Shown piece by piece: positions 13,478 through 59,201 of a stretch of 64,000 nt of DNA; the first letter of the stretch is position 1; every line of letters begins with the position of its first letter. Below the pieces are notes generated by a model. It had not been told where the DNA came from, searched no databases, and saw only the letters and a program-made list of their open reading frames with translations. Source of the DNA: a bacterium UBP2_UBA2255 (lineage in GTDB: Bacteria > Edwardsbacteria > AC1 > EtOH8); assembly GCA_002347565.1 (NCBI GenBank), contig DDXR01000038.1, forward strand, positions 9,909 to 73,908. Reading direction: 5' to 3'. Both the position numbers and the translations under genes were made by a program.

Positions 13478-13515
13478 CATCTAAACGTTGTAAACGTTAC
13501 AAACGTTTACACGTC
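13478..13515. repeat. AT-rich tandem array of AAACGTT units (9-nt period, 3-4 copies) between gcvPA and gcvH
   Basis: ctAAACGTTgtAAACGTTacAAACGTTtacACGTc; same core as the arrays flanking the four-helix-bundle gene at 57.6-58.1 kb. Confidence 0.6.
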
Positions 13516-35309: not shown

Positions 35310-36497
35310 CTACCGCCGCGTTCCCAGAAATCCGGCGATGGCGGCGGCCATCCGTTGCGCCGCCCGGCCGTCCCACCTCGGAATGCGGCAGGGGGCGGCC
35401 GGCCGGCCGGCGCTCGTGGCGCCCAGGGTCGCGCCCCTGCGCCACGCCCGCCAGGCCCCGAGGATCTGCGCCCGGTCGGTCCCGGCCAACCGGTTGGTGC
35501 CGTGCGCGATCGTCACCGGCCGTTCGGTATTGGTCCGGACCGTGAAGCAGGGGACGCCCAGGTACGTGGTCTCCTCCTGCACCCCGCCGGAATCGGTGAA
35601 GACGCAGGCCGCGCAGGATTCGGCCCTGATGAAGTCGAGGTATCCCATCGGTGGCATCAGGTGCAGGCCGGCCGCGCGGATCTTCGACCCATCGTGCCCG
35701 ATCCGAACGAACCTCCCGAGCGAGCCGAAACGCTCGAGGCTGGCCAGCGACCTCGGGTGCGCCGGCCACAGCACGGGAAGCTCCTGGGCGATATCGGCCA
35801 GCGCCGACAGGATCCCGGCCAGCGCGGCGCGGTCGTCGACATTGGCCGGCCGGTGCAGGGTGGCCAGGGCGTAGGGCCGCACCGTGCCGCCGCGTTCCAG
35901 CCCCAGCCGGCGCAGCACCGGCCGGCGCCGCGCCTTGGCCAATCCGGTCCGCAGCGAGTCGATCATCACGTTGCCGGCGAAGACGACCTTCGCTCCCGCA
36001 ATTCCCTCGCGCCGCAGGTTCCGGTCGGCGTCGGCGCAGTGCGTGAACAGCAGGCCGGACAGGTGGTCGGTGGCGATGCGGTTGATCTCCTCCGGCATCG
36101 ACCGGTCGCGGCTGCGCAGCCCGGCCTCGACGTGGGCCACGGGAATCCCCAGCTTGGCCGCCGCCAGCGCGCCGGCCAGGGTCGAGTTGACGTCGCCCAC
36201 CACCACGACCAGGTCGGGCCGCTCGCGGAACAGCACCCGCTCGAATGCCTCCAATACCGCCGCTGTCTGCGCCGCATGGCTGCCCGAGCCCGCGCCCAGG
36301 CAGTGGTCCGGCCCCGGCATCCCCAGCTCGCGGAGGAACACACGGGACATCAGGGCATCGTAGTGCTGCCCGGTGTGGACGGTCACCACCTGCGGCCGCC
36401 GGCCCGGCGGGAGCGCTCGCAACGCCCTGACCAGCGGCGCCACCTTGGGGAAGTTGGGGCGCGCGCCGGCGACGATGATCACCTTCTTCGCGCTCAT
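35310..36497 (-). CDS. wecB: UDP-N-acetylglucosamine 2-epimerase (non-hydrolysing)
   Basis: KVIIVAGARPNFPKVAPL...HTGQHYD...VVVGDVNSTLAGALAA...DSGGVQEE match WecB/MnaA. Start at MSAKK (36497) overlaps the GT2 stop (ATGA). The listed 587-aa ORF is over-extended. Confidence 0.88.
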   Translation of the reverse strand: MSAKKVIIVAGARPNFPKVAPLVRALRALPPGRRPQVVTVHTGQHYDALMSRVFLRELGMPGPDHCLGAGSGSHAAQTAAVLEAFERVLFRERPDLVVVVGDVNSTLAGALAAAKLGIPVAHVEAGLRSRDRSMPEEINRIATDHLSGLLFTHCADADRNLRREGIAGAKVVFAGNVMIDSLRTGLAKARRRPVLRRLGLERGGTVRPYALATLHRPANVDDRAALAGILSALADIAQELPVLWPAHPRSLASLERFGSLGRFVRIGHDGSKIRAAGLHLMPPMGYLDFIRAESCAACVFTDSGGVQEETTYLGVPCFTVRTNTERPVTIAHGTNRLAGTDRAQILGAWRAWRRGATLGATSAGRPAAPCRIPRWDGRAAQRMAAAIAGFLGTRR

Positions 36498-37561
36498 GGC
36501 AGCACCGGGGGTTTCCGCCGGCGGAAGGGCATGGCCAGCAAGCCCCAGGCCGAACCCAATCCGTAGGAGAGGTGCAGCGTGGCGAACACGAACGGCAGCA
36601 GCGCCAGGGCCCGCAGCGACGGTCGCCGGGGATCGTCGGTCGCTGGGCCCGGATCCCCTGTGCCGGCGCGAAGCGTGAAGAACAATGCTGCCAAGAGGTA
36701 AGCGGCGACGGTCGTCCAGAAGACGGCCGACGCCAGGCGCGCCCAGGGCGATTGCCCCGGCAACACCAGCGCCGAGGCTCCGAACAGCAGCAGGCCCGAC
36801 ACGAAGACCAACGGGACATAATGCCTGGGTTTCGGCGCGGACGGGTTGTCCGGCAGGAAGTGCGCGATCTCGTACCCGTCGGCCCAGCGCTGGCGCCAGG
36901 TCCCGCCCAGCGTCGTACGGCAATAGTACCACGCCCTGATCAGAGGCGACAAGTAAATGGTGAATCCCGCGGCCCGCAGCCTGGCGTTGAACTCCAGGTC
37001 CTCGGTGCGCGACCGCCGCTCGTCCAGCGGGCCGGTCCTGGCGAACACGTCGCGCCGGTAGCAGCCAGGCCACACCGTCTCGACGAACCCCTCGGCGCCG
37101 GGGTTCCGGAACCGTCCGCCGCCCAGCCCGAACGGACTGTGATGGGCCAGCGCCACGGCCCGGGCCACGGCCGTCCCGCGGGCCGGCAGGGCCACCGCCG
37201 GGCCGCCCACGTTGGCGGCGCCGGTCCGCTCCATCACCTCCAGGCAGCGCTTGACGTAGTCGGGCTGATAGCGGGCATGGGCGTCCAGCATCACCAGCAC
37301 GTCGCCCCGCGCCGCCTTGATGCCGATGTTCCTGCCCGCCGCCACGCCTTTTCCTGGATTGAGTATAATCCTACAATTTGGAATTTTGAATTTGGAAGAT
37401 TGAATTTGATCGATGGTCCCGTCATCGGACATCCCGTCGACCACCAGCACTTCGCTGTCGATGCCGTGCAGGTCCAGCGCCAGCACCGACTCCAGGCAGC
37501 GGCCGATGTGCGCGGCCTCGTTGCGCACGGGCACGATGATCGAGACGGAGGGACTAGCCAT
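36494..37561 (-). CDS. glycosyltransferase family 2 with C-terminal TM segments
   Basis: SIIVPVRNEAAHIGRCLESVL...VVDGMSDDGT...DAH match GT2 (DxD/DAH). Confidence 0.8.
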   Translation of the reverse strand: MASPSVSIIVPVRNEAAHIGRCLESVLALDLHGIDSEVLVVDGMSDDGTIDQIQSSKFKIPNCRIILNPGKGVAAGRNIGIKAARGDVLVMLDAHARYQPDYVKRCLEVMERTGAANVGGPAVALPARGTAVARAVALAHHSPFGLGGGRFRNPGAEGFVETVWPGCYRRDVFARTGPLDERRSRTEDLEFNARLRAAGFTIYLSPLIRAWYYCRTTLGGTWRQRWADGYEIAHFLPDNPSAPKPRHYVPLVFVSGLLLFGASALVLPGQSPWARLASAVFWTTVAAYLLAALFFTLRAGTGDPGPATDDPRRPSLRALALLPFVFATLHLSYGLGSAWGLLAMPFRRRKPPVLP

Positions 37562-54252: not shown

Positions 54253-55401
54253 TCAAATGCTCTCCTGAATGACCGATTCATAAACCCGCTGCATTGACTT
54301 GGCGGCCTTTTCCCAGGCATATTGCATCGATCGCGCCTTGCCCATCTCTATCAATTCATCCCGTTTGTGCTGATTGTGTAACACTGTATTAACTGCACTT
54401 CGCAGTGCGCTAGGGTCCTTGGGCGGGAAGAAGACAGCCGCATCACCCGCAACTTCCCTATGGCAGCTTGTTTCGCTCGCAACAACTGGGCATTCGCACC
54501 GGAATGCTTCAGCGATGGGGAGAGAGAAACCTTCGTACAACGAAGGCACGATCAATAACTCAGCATTGGTGTAGAGATCTGCAAGCATGTGGTCGTTTGC
54601 AGCAACCTGAATGACATTCTCGGCGATTCCAAGCCCGGAAAAATAGGATCGTTCTATCCCTGAAAAAGGATTTTCGTTCGCGCATACCAATAGATACGGC
54701 TTGCTGCCGGACAGGAGCGGTCGTATCGCTTGGCATAGGAAATGAAAATTCTTGTATCCCGATCTTCTTCCGACATACAAGAAATACTTGCGTGGATATT
54801 GAGAACCTGTCGGCGCATTTCCTCTCCGACTCTGCAAGGATACCCCATGGTGTATCACGGTTATCTTTTGATGGGGGACACACAGAAAATCTATAATTTG
54901 CTTTTTAGTATTCTCCGAAACGGCAACAATATGGTTGGCCCTGTTGATTAAATCCCGTTTATAGAACAATAACGGGTCTTGGAGTGAATATTCAGGGTAC
55001 GTTTCTTGGAACATATCATGAACCGTGAGGACGAAAGGCTTCCTTCCGATCGCTGGCAGGAAGTAGGGGTCGTGGTAGGTTGGATGGAAGAGGTCATAGC
55101 GGTGCCGGTTGTTTGCCAACCACCGGTTAGCAAGTCGGCGGTTTTCGGCAAGCCGATCACTCACATATCTCGGTCCGCCAAACACAGCACGGATCCTGTT
55201 CCTGAAAGATGGATAGGGAATCTCCATCTGCAACCGTCCCAGTGCGCCATCGTCAGCCGCATATTGGTTCTGTCCGTAATAACGGGGAATCTGGATATCC
55301 ACGCCCAGCAATCGCATATGGCTGATGATCTCGAAAAAATAGCGACTTATCCCGCCATACCGTTGCATGCCGAAAATCTGGCCGTCGTATGCGACCTTCA
55401 T
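54253..55401 (-). CDS. glycosyltransferase family 1 (GT4)
   Basis: LIVPSLYEGFSLPIAEAFRCECPVVAS; ~45% GC. Confidence 0.8.
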   Translation of the reverse strand: MKVAYDGQIFGMQRYGGISRYFFEIISHMRLLGVDIQIPRYYGQNQYAADDGALGRLQMEIPYPSFRNRIRAVFGGPRYVSDRLAENRRLANRWLANNRHRYDLFHPTYHDPYFLPAIGRKPFVLTVHDMFQETYPEYSLQDPLLFYKRDLINRANHIVAVSENTKKQIIDFLCVPHQKITVIHHGVSLQSRRGNAPTGSQYPRKYFLYVGRRSGYKNFHFLCQAIRPLLSGSKPYLLVCANENPFSGIERSYFSGLGIAENVIQVAANDHMLADLYTNAELLIVPSLYEGFSLPIAEAFRCECPVVASETSCHREVAGDAAVFFPPKDPSALRSAVNTVLHNQHKRDELIEMGKARSMQYAWEKAAKSMQRVYESVIQESI

Positions 55402-56357
55402 CTGAACACTCTCGAGAGCCTGTTCGCGATTCGTGAAAGACAGCGCGCGATCATCATTTTACAGTTTTCCGCGCCTCTGGGTGTATAATACTTGAATAGC
55501 CCGCCGACATTATCCAGATTATAGTTGCAGTCCCTGCAAAGGCCGGGGAAAATACCGCGGTTGTGCTTACCGATCAATGCCATCCGTTTGGGTTCCCTGA
55601 GGACATCCTCCAAACTCTCCTTCCCAATGTTCCCAAAGACGACGCTTCCCTGAAAATCGTGTGAGCATAGAACAATATCGCCATTAGGATAGAGCACGAT
55701 CATGTTGGTGAGGTAGTCGCAGGCCGCTCGCGACGTACGTTTCACCAATCCCCGGTCAATTGTCTTGCCTTGCTGGTTATCGAATTTATAGCTCACCCTG
55801 AGGGTGATGCCTTCGATCTCGGAAAAGGTATTGATGAAATCGATCACCTCCTGCTGGTTGGCTTCAAAAGCCAGCATGTGTATTTGCGCGTTCTTCGCCT
55901 TGCGGAACTCCCCCTCGTCGCCCAGCTGCTTGATTCTCGCCACAACATTGTCGAACGACAGTCCGGTAATTCTCTCGTACGTATCCTTCCTGCCGGCGTT
56001 GAAGCTGATGAAGAAATTATCTATGCCTTTGGGCACCTTCGTAACCGCGGAGCCGTTCGTTACTATGGTCGTGGCAATGTGACGTTCGCGGCACAGCGGC
56101 AGCGCCCATTCGACCATTTCAATAAAATGCGGGTGAAGGTAGCTTTCACCGATGGAGTAAAAATTGATGTTCTTCAGTTGTTCCACATTCAAGATCTGTG
56201 CTATGAACGCTTGGAAAGCGTCCCACCCCAGGTCCAGTGGCTGCCTGATGGTGTGATTCAGGCATGTTGTACAGCGAGCCGTGCACCTCGTCGTGAAGGT
56301 GATTTTTGCTTCGACGCCGCCCGGATTGAAGAGTACCATTGGTCGGGATCGCCTCAT
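55398..56357 (-). CDS. radical SAM enzyme with SPASM/twitch-like C-terminal Cys cluster
   Basis: TTRCTARCTTC is the CxxxCxxC radical SAM motif. C-terminal CSHDFQGSVVFGN...GLCRDCNYN resembles a SPASM/twitch auxiliary cluster. ~45% GC. Confidence 0.7.
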   Translation of the reverse strand: MRRSRPMVLFNPGGVEAKITFTTRCTARCTTCLNHTIRQPLDLGWDAFQAFIAQILNVEQLKNINFYSIGESYLHPHFIEMVEWALPLCRERHIATTIVTNGSAVTKVPKGIDNFFISFNAGRKDTYERITGLSFDNVVARIKQLGDEGEFRKAKNAQIHMLAFEANQQEVIDFINTFSEIEGITLRVSYKFDNQQGKTIDRGLVKRTSRAACDYLTNMIVLYPNGDIVLCSHDFQGSVVFGNIGKESLEDVLREPKRMALIGKHNRGIFPGLCRDCNYNLDNVGGLFKYYTPRGAENCKMMIARCLSRIANRLSRVFR

Positions 56358-57595
56358 GATCCAACGCTCCAGAACGGGCGGAAAAGCGACGTCCAGCCCT
56401 TTCGGTTGACCAGCGGGTACCGTCTGCCCAGTCCGTCTGTGTTGTCCAGGTTGAACAATAGGCTCCCGTCCTGTTTTATGATCCTGCGGTCCATGTGAAT
56501 CCCGATGTCGAATTCAATCCGGTACATGCCGGCTGCCAATGTATTTGACGGGATTACCCATTTGAAGGTGTATGTTCCCGGTAACGCTTCCAGCGCTGGT
56601 GGTAACTTGTCGTCGTCATGGACTACATATGCAATTTCGTAATCATATTCGGAAAAGAGCGTAAAACCGGCAATCAAGCCGTGTATCTTCTGGTGCACGT
56701 ATACTTCGCAGCCAATTTCCAGCGGGCTTGAAGTGTGGAAGGTCCGCTGGGCGTCTTTGGGCTGAATCCATGTCCGAAGCAACGACAGATGTCCGTCGCC
56801 GGCCTGACCGCTCCATGCCTGCTTGATTTCGCCGGCATTCAGGATCAGATATCTGGAAATGACCTCTTCGATCTCGCCGGTGGCTGTCAACGTGCCATTT
56901 TCGAGGAGAATGCCTTTGGTGCAGAGGCTGGACACCGCGCCCATGTTATGGCTGACAAAAATGACTGTGCGGCCCTGCCGCGAGACCTCGCTCATTTTCC
57001 CCAAGCATTTCTTTTGAAACAGTGCGTCGCCGACGGACAGCACCTCGTCCACCAGCAGTATCTCGGGCTCCAAATGCGCCGCCACCGCGAACGCCAGCCG
57101 CATGTACATGCCCGACGAGTAGTGCTTCACCGGCGTGTCGATGAACTTTTCCACCTCGGCGAAGGCCACCATCTCGTCGAACCGCCGCCGGATCTCGGCC
57201 CGGCCCATGCCCAGGATGGCGCCGTTGAGGAAGATGTTCTCGCGGCCGGTCAGCTCCGGATGGAACCCGGTGCCCACCTCCAGCAGCGACCCCACCCGGC
57301 CCCGCAGCTCCACCCGGCCCGCGGTGGGCTCGGTGATCTTGGAGAGGATCTTCAGCAGCGTGCTCTTGCCCGCGCCGTTGCGGCCGATGACGCCCACCAC
57401 CTCGCCCTGCTTGACCTCGAACGAGACGTCCTTGAGGGCCCAGAATTCATTGTCCGTTGAACATTGCCTTGTTTGAACGTTCGGACGCTTGAACGCCGAA
57501 GCGATGGAATCGCGGAGGGTGTCGTGCTTTTTATGCAGCGCCCCGATGCGGTATTTCTTGCCAAGGCTCTCGGCCCTGATCACGGTATCTGACAT
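56354..57595 (-). CDS. wzt: polysaccharide ABC transporter ATP-binding protein Wzt with C-terminal glycan-binding (Wzt_C-like) domain
   Basis: Walker A GRNGAGKST, signature YSSGMYMRL, Walker B LLVDEVLSVGD, plus a ~160-aa C-terminal beta-rich extension. Start taken at MSDTVIRAESLGKKY. Confidence 0.85.
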   Translation of the reverse strand: MSDTVIRAESLGKKYRIGALHKKHDTLRDSIASAFKRPNVQTRQCSTDNEFWALKDVSFEVKQGEVVGVIGRNGAGKSTLLKILSKITEPTAGRVELRGRVGSLLEVGTGFHPELTGRENIFLNGAILGMGRAEIRRRFDEMVAFAEVEKFIDTPVKHYSSGMYMRLAFAVAAHLEPEILLVDEVLSVGDALFQKKCLGKMSEVSRQGRTVIFVSHNMGAVSSLCTKGILLENGTLTATGEIEEVISRYLILNAGEIKQAWSGQAGDGHLSLLRTWIQPKDAQRTFHTSSPLEIGCEVYVHQKIHGLIAGFTLFSEYDYEIAYVVHDDDKLPPALEALPGTYTFKWVIPSNTLAAGMYRIEFDIGIHMDRRIIKQDGSLLFNLDNTDGLGRRYPLVNRKGWTSLFRPFWSVGS

Positions 57596-57600
57596 TACTT

Positions 57601-57657
57601 CCGTTTGCACGTTGGAGCGTTGAGACGTTATCACGTTCGAACGCGTTGACGTTATTG
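57601..57657. repeat. tandem array of six ACGTT-core units with 8-nt period, abutting the 3' end of the four-helix-bundle gene
   Basis: gcACGTTggagCGTTgagACGTTatcACGTTcgaACGCGTTgACGTTatt; unit starts at 57609, 57617, 57625, 57633, 57641 and 57649. Confidence 0.7.
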
Positions 57658-58017
57658 GTTTTTAAGGTACGTTATCAATTTGCTGATCTGGCTGCTGCAC
57701 TTTTCGGCCTTGTCGAACAGGACCGCGAAATCGTCGCGGCTGATGTACTCCTGGTCGAGCACGGCATACAACTGGGACCGGAACTCTCCCGAGGAGGCCT
57801 TGGCGATGCCGAGATAGCGGATGAACCCCGGCTTCGTCTGGCTCTCGAAACCCTCGGCGATGTTCGACATGATCGAGACCGCGGAACGGCAGATCTGGTC
57901 GCGCAGTCCAAAATCACGCTTGAACGCCTTGCTGCCGGAGATCGCATACGCCGCCCTGGTCAGTTCCCGCGCCGTCTTCCAGGCTTCGATGTCCTCGAAC
58001 CGCTTGAAGGTGCCCAT
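57652..58017 (-). CDS. four-helix-bundle protein (23S rRNA intervening-sequence protein family)
   Basis: MGTFKRFEDIEAWKTARELTRAAYAISG...DQICRSAVSIMSNIAEGF...YLGIAKASSGEFRSQLYAV is characteristic of this family; it sits between wzm and wzt. Confidence 0.8.
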   Translation of the reverse strand: MGTFKRFEDIEAWKTARELTRAAYAISGSKAFKRDFGLRDQICRSAVSIMSNIAEGFESQTKPGFIRYLGIAKASSGEFRSQLYAVLDQEYISRDDFAVLFDKAEKCSSQISKLITYLKNQ

Positions 58018-58045
58018 TTCTATTAACCCTTGATTGTTGAATCCT

Positions 58046-58091
58046 GTCGTTCGAACGTTCTAACGTTCCAACGTTACAACGTTAAAACGTC
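58046..58091. repeat. tandem array of six AACGTT units with 8-nt period, ~30 nt upstream of the four-helix-bundle gene
   Basis: tcgTTCGAACGTTctAACGTTccAACGTTacAACGTTaaAACGTcgg; unit starts at 58054, 58062, 58070, 58078 and 58086. Confidence 0.7.
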
Positions 58092-58096
58092 GGTGA

Positions 58097-58930
58097 TCAG
58101 GCCTCGTCCGCGAAGGTCTTCTCCATCCGCCGGAAATAGAAGGCGCCGCTCACCAGGATCGCCAGCCCCGCGCACAGCGAGACCAGCATGGTGTTCAGCG
58201 GCATCAGGCCGGTGCCCAGGAACGCCCAGCGGAACCCGTTGATCACGCCCACCATCGGGTTGAGCGCGTAGAGCGGCTGCCACTGGGCCGGGATCAGCAT
58301 CAGCGAGTAGGCCACCGGCGAGGCGAACATCCAGGCCTGGATCATGAACGGAATGGCGTGGCCCACGTCGCGGTAGCGGACGTTCAGCGCCGACAGCCAC
58401 AGCCCCGCCCCCAGCGCCACCGACAGCGTCACCAGCACCAGCAACGGCAGCAGCAGCAGCCCCCAGCCGAACGGCATGCGGTACCAGGCCATCAGGGCGA
58501 ACAGCACCAGCAGCGAGATGGCGAAGTCCACCAGCGGGGACAGGGTGCTGGAGACCGGGATCAGCAGGCGAGGGAAGTAGACCTTCTTGACCATGCCGGA
58601 ACTGCCCACCACGCTATTGGTGGCGCGGGTCAGCGCGGCGGCGAACAGGTTCCACGGCAGCAGGGCGCAGAAGGTGAACACCGGGTAGGGCACACCGCCC
58701 GAGGGCAGCTTGCCGAACCTGCCGAACACCAGGCTGAAGATCACCATCGTCACCACCGGTTGGATCACCGCCCACAGCACGCCCAGCGCGGTCTGCTTGT
58801 AGCGCACCAGGATGTCGCGCCAGGTCAGGAAGTACAGCAGCTCCCGGTAGCGCCACAGCTCCCGGACGTCGATCGGAATCCAGCCCCTGCGGGGCTCGAT
58901 GATGGTGACGGGTGCGTCGGCGTCCATCAA
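58097..58930 (-). CDS. wzm: polysaccharide ABC transporter permease Wzm (ABC-2 type)
   Basis: Six-TM ABC-2 permease with N-terminal ELWRYRELLYFLTWRDILVRYKQTALGVLWAVIQP, typical of Wzm/TagG. Confidence 0.85.
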   Translation of the reverse strand: MMDADAPVTIIEPRRGWIPIDVRELWRYRELLYFLTWRDILVRYKQTALGVLWAVIQPVVTMVIFSLVFGRFGKLPSGGVPYPVFTFCALLPWNLFAAALTRATNSVVGSSGMVKKVYFPRLLIPVSSTLSPLVDFAISLLVLFALMAWYRMPFGWGLLLLPLLVLVTLSVALGAGLWLSALNVRYRDVGHAIPFMIQAWMFASPVAYSLMLIPAQWQPLYALNPMVGVINGFRWAFLGTGLMPLNTMLVSLCAGLAILVSGAFYFRRMEKTFADEA

Positions 58931-58979: not shown

Positions 58980-59201
58980 TTACTTGCAGCAGGGCCCGCC
59001 GTCCTTGTGCGCCTGTGCCTTGACGAGGCAGAGTTTCACGGCGATGGCCGCTAGCAGGAACAACTGGGCCATGTCGACATACGTGTTGTGCCTGATGTCC
59101 AGGAACTCCCGGGGTAGTATCCCAACCTTGGATATGATCCCGGTCAGAAAACTGGCCGCCGCCATCAGGATGAGCAGCGTTGTCAGGCGGATCTTCGGCA
59201 T
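58980..59201 (-). CDS. hypothetical small membrane protein (73 aa, 2 TM, C-terminal GGPCCK)
   Basis: ORF immediately downstream of thrS with two hydrophobic helices; no family recognised. Confidence 0.3.
   Translation of the reverse strand: MPKIRLTTLLILMAAASFLTGIISKVGILPREFLDIRHNTYVDMAQLFLLAAIAVKLCLVKAQAHKDGGPCCK

Follow-up and report, generated by a model that had tools for sequence, protein, structure and literature searches.

In the window, i.e. the whole stretch of 64,000 nucleotides that was analysed, wzm and wzt are separated by a small gene encoding a four-helix-bundle (4HB) protein, and the gene order on the minus strand is wzm, 4HB gene, wzt (Table 1). This order, together with a score of 102 bits against the PF05635 HMM (cut-off 33.8), bears out an earlier reading of the sequence (the original prediction), according to which the wzm–wzt pair is interrupted by a 121-aa 4HB gene. 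The insertion lies exactly at the wzm/wzt cistron junction, and the 4HB gene has its own ribosome-binding site. The wzt gene, whose product is identical to protein P0121, is followed in the same operon by a radical SAM/SPASM gene and a GT4 glycosyltransferase gene; these two, wzm, wzt and thrS are the neighbours of the 4HB gene in the window. Gene and domain calls identified no transposase or recombinase gene within ~3 kb of the 4HB gene in the window or in its relatives, and neither a reverse transcriptase nor a template/variable repeat pair was found among the genes neighbouring 4HB genes. Within the element formed by the 4HB gene and its flanking arrays, a promoter and terminator scan detected neither a sigma-70-like promoter nor a terminator on the minus strand. 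No Rfam family, rRNA included, matched positions 57300–58200, and a PADLOC scan gave no relevant match.

Table 1. Genes and repeat arrays of the wzm–wzt region, and the solo array elsewhere in the window
Feature	Position	Strand	Description
wzm	58930..58097	minus	ABC-2 permease, PF01061, E 1.2e-22; upstream of the insert
wzm stop codon	58099-58097	minus	array A1 starts 5 nt later
Array A1 (5' arm)	58046-58091		six (A)ACGTTnn units, between the wzm stop codon and the 4HB ribosome-binding site
4HB gene	58017..57652	minus	121 aa; S23p / "23S rRNA IVS protein" family; putative cargo in the loop
Array A2 (3' arm)	57600-57653		seven degenerate 8-nt units
wzt	57595..56354	minus	ABC ATPase, PF00005 and NCBIfam Wzt/TagH-type models; downstream of the insert
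Array A3	57457-57500	minus	degenerate, in frame, in the N-terminal linker of wzt; peptide ...AFKRPNVQTRQCS...; repeat family D1
Solo gcvH/gcvPA array	13478-13515		no ORF; period 9, AAACGTTnn x3

Arrays of short tandem units flank the 4HB gene on both sides. The units of A1 are spaced exactly 8 nt apart; four of the six contain a perfect AACGTT (at 58054, 58062, 58070 and 58078) and the two end units carry one mismatch each. The TRF score of A1 was 46–51, and ACGTTNNNACGTT occurred 8 times in the window compared to 0.03 expected from shuffled sequences. The original prediction had placed a six-unit array with an exact 8-nt period on either side of the gene, which was correct for the right-hand array, A1. 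The left-hand array, A2, is degenerate and lies at the position given in Table 1 rather than at 57609–57656. Its CGTT motifs start at 57602, 57610, 57618, 57626, 57634, 57644 and 57650, i.e. with spacings of 8, 8, 8, 8, 10 and 6, which depart from a strict period. The array runs over the 4HB stop codon (57654–57652) and reaches the wzt ribosome-binding site. The repeats that had been noticed near the 5' end of wzt are real and in frame; this further degenerate array of the window, A3, has cleaner copies in the relatives L002 and L004. The single terminator-like match of the promoter and terminator scan also lay inside wzt, on the plus strand.

A1 and A2 contain the arms of an inverted repeat (57602–57643 and 58048–58089; 42 nt, 81% complementary, 404 nt apart), and for transcripts of 531 and 681 nt both the MFE and the centroid fold predict pairing of A1 with A2. 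Several results for the window count against the interpretation of these arms as an RNA stem: taken alone, folds of the whole region did not reach significance (z −1.64 and −1.31), each arm could instead fold locally on itself (−20.7 and −14.2 kcal/mol), and the left arm is degenerate. An apparent extension of the stem, in which CUGAUCAC at the wzm stop codon would pair with GUGAUCAG in wzt codons 5–8, was rejected as a chance match; by eye, it is absent from L002. The solo array between gcvH and gcvPA, which had also been predicted, is real. It is situated between the gcvH stop codon and the gcvPA ribosome-binding site, and folds as a hairpin (−14.9 kcal/mol, z −2.7).

The 4HB protein also matched the TIGR02436 HMM ("four helix bundle protein"; 96.2 bits, cut-off 24). 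Its closest relatives of solved structure are XCC0516 (2gsc, E 1.5e-10) and BT_0352 (2rld), each of which has five chains in the deposited crystal structure. An AlphaFold model of the monomer (pLDDT 94.7) superposed on 2gsc with a TM-score of 0.88–0.93 and on 2rld with 0.75–0.87. The next-best fold was that of Avd from the DGR of a Bordetella phage (4dwl; TM-score 0.75–0.84, rmsd 1.9–2.5, identity 10%), a protein that the 4HB sequence profile did not detect. Comparison of the 4HB genes of the window and L002 yielded a dN of 0.073 and a dS of 0.433 (dN/dS ~0.17), and this substitution pattern indicates that the protein is under purifying selection and functional. The GC3 of the 4HB gene (0.84) is near that of the host (0.95), which fits a long residence of the gene. 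The S23p/IVS family to which the protein belongs is very large, with at least 8000 scored candidates in the homolog search. The family takes its name from intervening sequences (IVSs); structures have been solved since 2006, yet no function is assigned to it.

Insertion sites in relatives

Comparison of the wzm–wzt junction among relatives, which had been suggested as a check of the original prediction, revealed both filled and empty sites. The wzm–4HB–wzt order is kept in L001, L212, L002/L003 and L004/L005, in which the 4HB proteins are 99%, 98%, 89% and 75% identical, respectively, to that of the window. All of these relatives contain arrays at the same three positions, i.e. on either side of the 4HB gene and inside wzt, and the genes farther downstream vary among them. 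A1 of L212 has one unit more than A1 of the window, indicating that the arrays change by slippage. At the empty sites, which belong to more distant relatives, the gap between wzm and wzt is 3 nt (L211) or 13 nt (L213/L214), and the 4HB gene and the arrays are both absent. The Wzt and Wzm proteins of L211 are 61% and 57% identical to those of the window, and Wzt of L213/L214 is 60% identical. As relatives have empty junctions, the 4HB unit is an insertion, and the comparison of these sequences shows that the gene and its arrays form a discrete, repeat-bounded one.

The 4HB unit recurs at other operon junctions, in other phyla and in many uncultured bacteria. Among the loci listed, and with junction labels assigned by eye from the flanking translations, it occurs between genes for a periplasmic adaptor and an ABC ATPase (8 loci), between gmd-like and fcl-like epimerase genes (9 loci) and between exbB and exbD (5 loci), as well as between wzm and wzt. 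In the examples that were read, the upstream array begins at the stop codon of the upstream gene or a few bases from it, and the downstream array either stops at the ribosome-binding site of the next gene or falls in its first codons. The genes beside the 4HB gene are mostly co-oriented with it. Identity between 4HB proteins is 69% within junction classes compared to 54% between them, and this clustering by junction class suggests that each insertion is old and was inherited with its operon. The unit varies within a class while the arms stay complementary; ACGTT, AAGGTC, AACGTC and CCGTTAT are all found as units in the adaptor|ABC class. Purifying selection and clustering by site would be more in keeping with a function that is retained than with a purely selfish passenger.

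A copy in the cyanobacterium L033 is situated at kdpA|kdpB, with the 4HB gene antisense to the operon, and AACGTTnn arrays are also present upstream of kdpA and just downstream of kdpB in this genome. The protein encoded by this copy nests in one subclade of the wzm|wzt proteins (68–71% identity), implying at least one change of site. No relatives of the element were found in viral contigs. The suggestion that the 4HB gene is part of a small mobile cassette thus holds in so far as a discrete repeat-bounded insert, with empty sites in L211 and L213/L214, recurs at other junctions and in other phyla. The insert does not appear to have been recently mobile at wzm|wzt, since it occupies the same site at 4HB identities from 99 to 75% and the proteins cluster by site.

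Complementary flanks

Other copies of the gene were collected by searching metagenome contigs with aligned 4HB homologs; the best 80 loci (47–63% identity) were taken. Nearly all of these 80 loci are bracketed by tandem arrays, mostly of 7- or 8-nt units; in a lenient scan the commonest period among relatives was 7, followed by 8. The units are specific to the locus and include GTTTCAA, GGTTGAA, AGTTTCG, GTTCCAAG, AGTTCCAG, GGTCCAAG, CGGTTATC and AAGTCTTAC, among others. In the listed loci that were read, the upstream array reappears downstream as its reverse complement. Under strict scoring of tandem arrays, only 17 loci had clean arrays both upstream and downstream, since the units have 2–3 free positions. 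In 15 of these 17, representing 10 distinct units, the upstream unit is the reverse complement of the downstream unit.

Complementarity of the flanks was assessed by aligning the upstream 150 nt with the reverse complement of the downstream 200 nt, using 50 shuffles per locus, for 79 loci comprising the homolog loci, the window, L002, L004 and L033. The alignment beat all 50 shuffles at 67 of the 79 loci. The median score was 19.5 for the inverted orientation, compared to 8.0 for the direct orientation and 7.7 for the shuffles. When flanks were swapped between loci the median fell to 8.5, and a score of 15 was reached by 10% of the pairs. As swapped flanks score low, the complementarity is locus-specific, i.e. 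the two flanks covary. This local alignment replaced RNAduplex, which was uninformative on 140 × 200-nt flanks as long flanks pair non-specifically. The median arm is 34 nt long (~4–5 units). When whole elements were folded, the ORF of L194 was enclosed by a perfect 40-bp stem (z −8.0), and L160 had a stem of 25 bp (z −5.6).

The AACGTT arrays had been proposed to act as protein-binding or recombination sites. In the loci examined here AACGTT is not a specific recognition site: related elements use many different 7–8-nt units, and the conserved feature is the complementarity of the two flanks, not the AACGTT sequence. Judged from the units, AACGTTnn is a special case in which the core is its own complement, i.e. 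palindromic; elsewhere the corresponding pair is AAGGTT and AACCTT.

The mismatches within the arms show no wobble bias (115 G·U compared to 111 A·C, p = 0.84). Complementarity could therefore be kept at the DNA level, e.g. by gene conversion between the inverted arms, and such homogenisation would be equally compatible with the mismatch data. The arms also differ between strands in that upstream arms are G-rich and C-poor (G 800 compared to C 404; 56 of 70 loci, which are not phylogenetically independent).

Arrays without a 4HB gene

A genome-wide pattern scan for three AACGTTnn units, a search suggested by the original prediction, returned at least 120 loci. Among the matches listed, solo arrays are found mainly in Chloroflexota, Acidobacteriota (Thermoanaerobaculia, Sulfomarinibacteraceae) and filamentous cyanobacteria, often at several loci per genome. 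Most of these arrays are intergenic, and a minority are apparently inside open reading frames. Arrays occur at successive gene junctions of one cluster in L085 and L092, as they do in L033. Among the at least 120 loci listed, 96 arrays had at least 700 nt of sequence on each side, and a 4HB gene was present within 150 nt of only 3 of these, leaving ~97% without one. Solo AACGTTnn arrays are a common repeat in their own right. As solo arrays are common, the gcvH/gcvPA array need not be the footprint that it had been suggested it might be. The possibility that solo arrays are 5'-UTR elements was not supported by a crude test, in which 19 of 115 arrays were close to a start codon compared to 15.9% of random positions, i.e. 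without enrichment.

Arrays are also found within wzt. In-frame arrays of 7- or 8-nt units are present in the N-terminal linker of many Wzt homologs, as A3 is in the window, with or without an upstream 4HB gene. The linker of L209 carries six near-perfect units, and that of L210 contains an inverted pair of heptamer arrays, which amounts to an ORF-less hairpin (−20.2 kcal/mol). These linker hairpins and the other ORF-less arrays suggest that hairpins built from arrays exist alone and that the 4HB gene is the cargo of a subset of them.

Short repeats with comparable properties are known. Cyanobacterial STRR heptamers are likewise intergenic tandem repeats of ~7 nt, and the REP/BIME elements and MITEs are short, hairpin-forming extragenic repeats found between the genes of operons. 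A pairing of autonomous with non-autonomous forms is conceivable for the element described here as it is for REP/BIME elements and MITEs, but these have a conserved palindrome, whereas the arrays of the element consist of tandem, locus-specific units and have no linked RAYT or transposase. In Beggiatoaceae and cyanobacteria, intergenic heptanucleotide direct repeats of unassigned function occur without a linked gene (PMC4679880). The TAACTGA repeats of marine Beggiatoaceae resemble the arrays of the element in being tandem repeats of ~7 nt in 2–9 copies, mostly intergenic, often just upstream of genes and phylogenetically patchy (PMC4679880). They differ in being direct repeats of a fixed unit with no linked gene (PMC4679880), whereas the arrays of the element form complementary pairs around a gene family or have a palindromic core. 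The period of the heptanucleotide and STRR type is 7, compared to 8 in the window (9 at gcvH/gcvPA) and mostly 7 in the relatives.

Comparison with rRNA intervening sequences and alternative explanations

The closest parallel to the element is found in the 23S rRNA. The IVS of Coxiella burnetii is a 428-nt insert in helix 45 of 23S rRNA that carries an S23p ORF and has a 28-bp terminal stem, and it is excised by RNase III; 2–4 tandem GACAGAT heptamers, in a copy number that varies between strains, are present upstream of the ORF (PMC4990558). Like the IVSs of C. burnetii, Leptospira, Brucella and Xanthomonas (PMC4990558), the element contains a PF05635 gene in the loop, complementary termini whose pairing (predicted, in the element) encloses the ORF in a stem, and short tandem repeats of variable copy number beside the ORF. 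Both are promoterless inserts, and the element, like the IVSs, would be transcribed as part of the host RNA. They differ in site: the rRNA IVSs lie in helix 25 or 45, whereas the element lies in a protein-coding operon at wzm|wzt and other cistron junctions, and so lacks the rRNA location that defines an IVS. In the element, unlike in the 23S rRNA IVSs, both arms are almost wholly made up of tandem 7–8-nt units. In addition, the ORF of the element is intact and under purifying selection, whereas that of the Coxiella IVS is decaying and apparently untranslated.

We favour, with moderate confidence, the explanation that the element is of the IVS type and resides in the operon's mRNA, where its arms would pair and be cut by RNase III. 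The layout is shared by many uncultured bacteria, so that the element is probably an insert of wide distribution, looped out of messenger RNA. According to this proposal, a promoterless S23p/PF05635 gene was inserted at the wzm/wzt junction, bracketed by complementary arms built from repeats. Within the polycistronic transcript these arms would pair over ~42 nt at 81% in the window and over perfect stems of up to 40 bp in relatives, looping out the 4HB ORF, so that the stop codon of wzm would come to lie next to the start codon of wzt. The stem would most likely be a substrate of RNase III, by analogy with the 23S rRNA IVSs carrying the same gene family. Cleavage would release the 4HB message and leave the host cistrons wzm and wzt separated and functional, and we propose that the insert is tolerated for this reason. 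The proximity of stop and start codons could moreover keep the translational coupling implied by the 3-nt gap at the empty site.

The arms would behave as simple-sequence repeats in which the unit and its copy number drift by slippage while complementarity is maintained, AACGTTnn being the variant of the lineage represented by the window. As the core of this variant is palindromic, each arm could fold on itself and ORF-less arrays could stand alone. We infer RNA pairing of the arms, RNase III cleavage and any benefit to the host alike.

An IVS-type element outside rRNA would provide a general, apparently undescribed architecture for a large protein family. In the part of the literature that was covered, no account was found of PF05635 genes that lie at cistron junctions between complementary tandem arrays; searches for the AACGTT repeat, PF05635, TIGR02436 and S23p led only to papers on the Coxiella IVS, DGRs and TAACTGA repeats, none with this architecture. 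One clade of S23p/IVS proteins is systematically bracketed by covarying, complementary tandem-repeat arms. The elements occupy exact cistron junctions in operons unrelated to one another (O-antigen export, efflux, GDP-sugar synthesis, ExbBD and Kdp), and ORF-less versions are scattered in the same lineages. What had been a scattered gene becomes a defined element with directly testable predictions, and bacterial intergenic heptamer and octamer repeats of unassigned function (PMC4679880) become tied to a specific gene family.

Alternatively, the element could be a mobile or recombinogenic cassette at the DNA level, with the arrays serving as terminal inverted repeats for transposition, inversion or excision in trans and with ORF-less arrays as MITE-like derivatives or deletion footprints. 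The existence of both filled and empty sites argues for such a cassette, as does the kdpA|kdpB copy of L033, which is antisense and nested in a wzm|wzt subclade, and would require the element to have both moved to another site and been inverted at least once. The arms lack the G·U bias expected of RNA, and arms made of palindromic units are also direct repeats, between which recombination could delete the gene and leave one array. We nevertheless consider a cassette of this kind unlikely, given the lack of a transposase or recombinase within ~3 kb, the long vertical retention at each site and the lack of relatives in viral contigs. The variation of arm sequence from locus to locus also argues against a single sequence-specific enzyme.

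The arrays could also be candidate binding sites of a 4HB pentamer on RNA or DNA, with one 7–8-nt unit per subunit, for autoregulation or RNP formation; this function could coexist with pairing in RNA or with a DNA cassette. Tandem operator arrays of 7- and 8-bp units, some palindromic and in 2–10 copies, are known for the omega repressor (heptads) and MetJ (8-bp metboxes), which favours binding here as well. Those arrays are operators upstream of promoters and are bound by ribbon-helix-helix proteins, whereas the arrays of the element are found between cistrons as complementary pairs, and the element encodes no ribbon-helix-helix protein. The five chains of the 2gsc and 2rld crystals and the description of X. 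campestris S23p as a homopentameric toroid (PMC4990558) agree with a pentamer. PF05635 resembles or is related to Avd in the CDD classification (PMC10053308), and the 4HB model shares the four-helix-bundle fold of Avd (4dwl, TM-score 0.75–0.84). Avd forms a pentameric, positively charged barrel that specifically protects ~30 nt of DGR RNA (PMC6182149), similar to the median arm length of 34 nt found here. Unlike Avd, the 4HB gene has no DGR context, and the two proteins are only ~10% identical.

Other results argue against binding. The protein is 50–60% conserved while the repeat units differ widely, and, unless the target were double-stranded, the same protein would need to recognise a unit as well as its complement. 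Shared ancestry can account for the association of unit type with protein clade. Recognition of the arrays by the 4HB pentamer is an improbable reading. An equally improbable extension is that arm-bracketed PF05635 genes are the autonomous members of an undescribed class of intercistronic elements. The pentamer would bind its own ~34-nt arms, one 7–8-nt unit to each subunit, in a way similar to that of Avd on its ~30-nt RNA site, the resulting RNP would maintain or copy the element, and ORF-less arrays and hairpins, whether intergenic or in frame as in wzt, would be non-autonomous derivatives. If true, this would explain both the origin and spread of rRNA IVSs and the role of S23p proteins.

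A separate possibility concerns A3 only. This array could be a contingency locus, at which the gain or loss of one 8-nt unit would frameshift wzt and so toggle glycan export. In-frame 7- and 8-nt arrays are present in many Wzt linkers, including the six near-perfect units of L209; the unit length is never a multiple of 3, and a change in copy number is seen in A1 of L212. Against this, slippage is unlikely at A3 of the window, which is degenerate; frameshifted alleles were not observed; and L210 has an inverted pair that forms a hairpin rather than a direct array. Phase variation by A3 appears very doubtful.

Finally, AACGTTnn could be a generic intergenic repeat of the lineage, similar to REP or cyanobacterial STRR sequences, with the 4HB gene situated between two arrays by chance; arrays are indeed plentiful without the gene, which adjoins only 3 of 96 among the at least 120 genome loci, and occur at successive gene junctions in L033, L085 and L092, but such a coincidence is barely credible and largely refuted by the mutually complementary, locus-specific flanks of 67 of 79 4HB loci, by the presence of arrays at the same three positions even where the 4HB proteins are only 75% identical, and by empty sites lacking both gene and arrays.

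Arrays of this type also matter for annotation, since their translation gives rise to unusual duplicated peptides in proteins such as Wzt.

AACGTTnn arrays at gene boundaries

Arrays of the AACGTTnn unit were found at successive gene boundaries in several lineages. The kdp operon of the filamentous cyanobacterium CCP5 (locus L033) contains a four-helix-bundle (4HB) gene antisense between kdpA and kdpB, and arrays occupy all four boundaries within the locus: upstream of kdpA, on both sides of the 4HB gene and immediately downstream of kdpB. In the acidobacteriotal locus L085 they lie at consecutive gene junctions of a polysaccharide cluster, and in the Anaerolineales locus L092 they stand on either side of a short-chain dehydrogenase gene.

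Coordinates of the repeat arrays and associated features
Feature	Locus	Coordinates
kdp operon with AACGTTnn arrays	L033	3191-7691
AACGTTnn arrays in a polysaccharide cluster	L085	2385-5891
Short-chain dehydrogenase gene with arrays	L092	989-1883
4HB gene with both flanks	L127	2860-3560
In-frame wzt-linker array	L206	2600-2640
In-frame wzt-linker array	L209	1415-1465
In-frame wzt-linker array	L210	2590-2680
In-frame heptamer array, units AATTTGG/AATTTGA, ~5 copies	window, inside GT2 glycosyltransferase gene 36494-37561 (-)	37375-37408
73-aa ORF directly upstream of wzm	window	58980-59201
Region of lower GC3	window	54253-57000

Arm composition and self-pairing

Base composition was determined for the arms flanking 4HB genes at 72 loci with aligned arms, drawn from the best 80 4HB-homolog loci (L126-L205), the window, the wzm-4HB-wzt relatives L002 and L004, and L033. 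The sense strand of the upstream arms was G-rich and C-poor (800 G vs 404 C, over loci that are not phylogenetically independent), with G exceeding C at 56 of 70 of these non-independent loci. Downstream arms of the same loci had the converse bias, being C-rich and G-poor. At the 4HB homolog L127, both flanks each contain a CGGTTATC-type array plus its complement, so that each flank can be predicted to form a local hairpin, besides pairing with the other.

In-frame arrays and the wzm-4HB-wzt region

In-frame 7- or 8-nt arrays were also identified in the N-terminal linker of Wzt homologs from several lineages, directly ahead of FWALKDVSF. Three such homologs (L206, L209 and L210) lack an upstream 4HB gene. 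The L209 array reads (AGCGTTCC)x3(AACGTTCC)x3, and the L210 linker contains an inverted heptamer hairpin. Adding or dropping a single unit would shift the wzt reading frame, so these arrays may be phase-variation sites. The heptamer array in the GT2 gene of the window, a low-GC island within the reading frame whose encoded peptide contains DQIQSSKFKIPN, looks similar in kind to the wzt in-gene array.

GC3 in the window was 0.95-0.96 in wzm and thrS and lower past mid-wzt (the wzt 3' half and the radical SAM gene both at 0.66, GT4 at 0.55). The relative L212 is near-identical to the window across wzm, the 4HB gene and the 5' part of wzt, and its downstream genes differ. From the drop in GC3 together with these different genes, a serotype-type module seems to have been exchanged, with the breakpoint inside wzt. 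The small ORF preceding wzm had no Pfam match; the relatives L001 and L002 have counterparts called at the matching position, 73 and 77 aa long.
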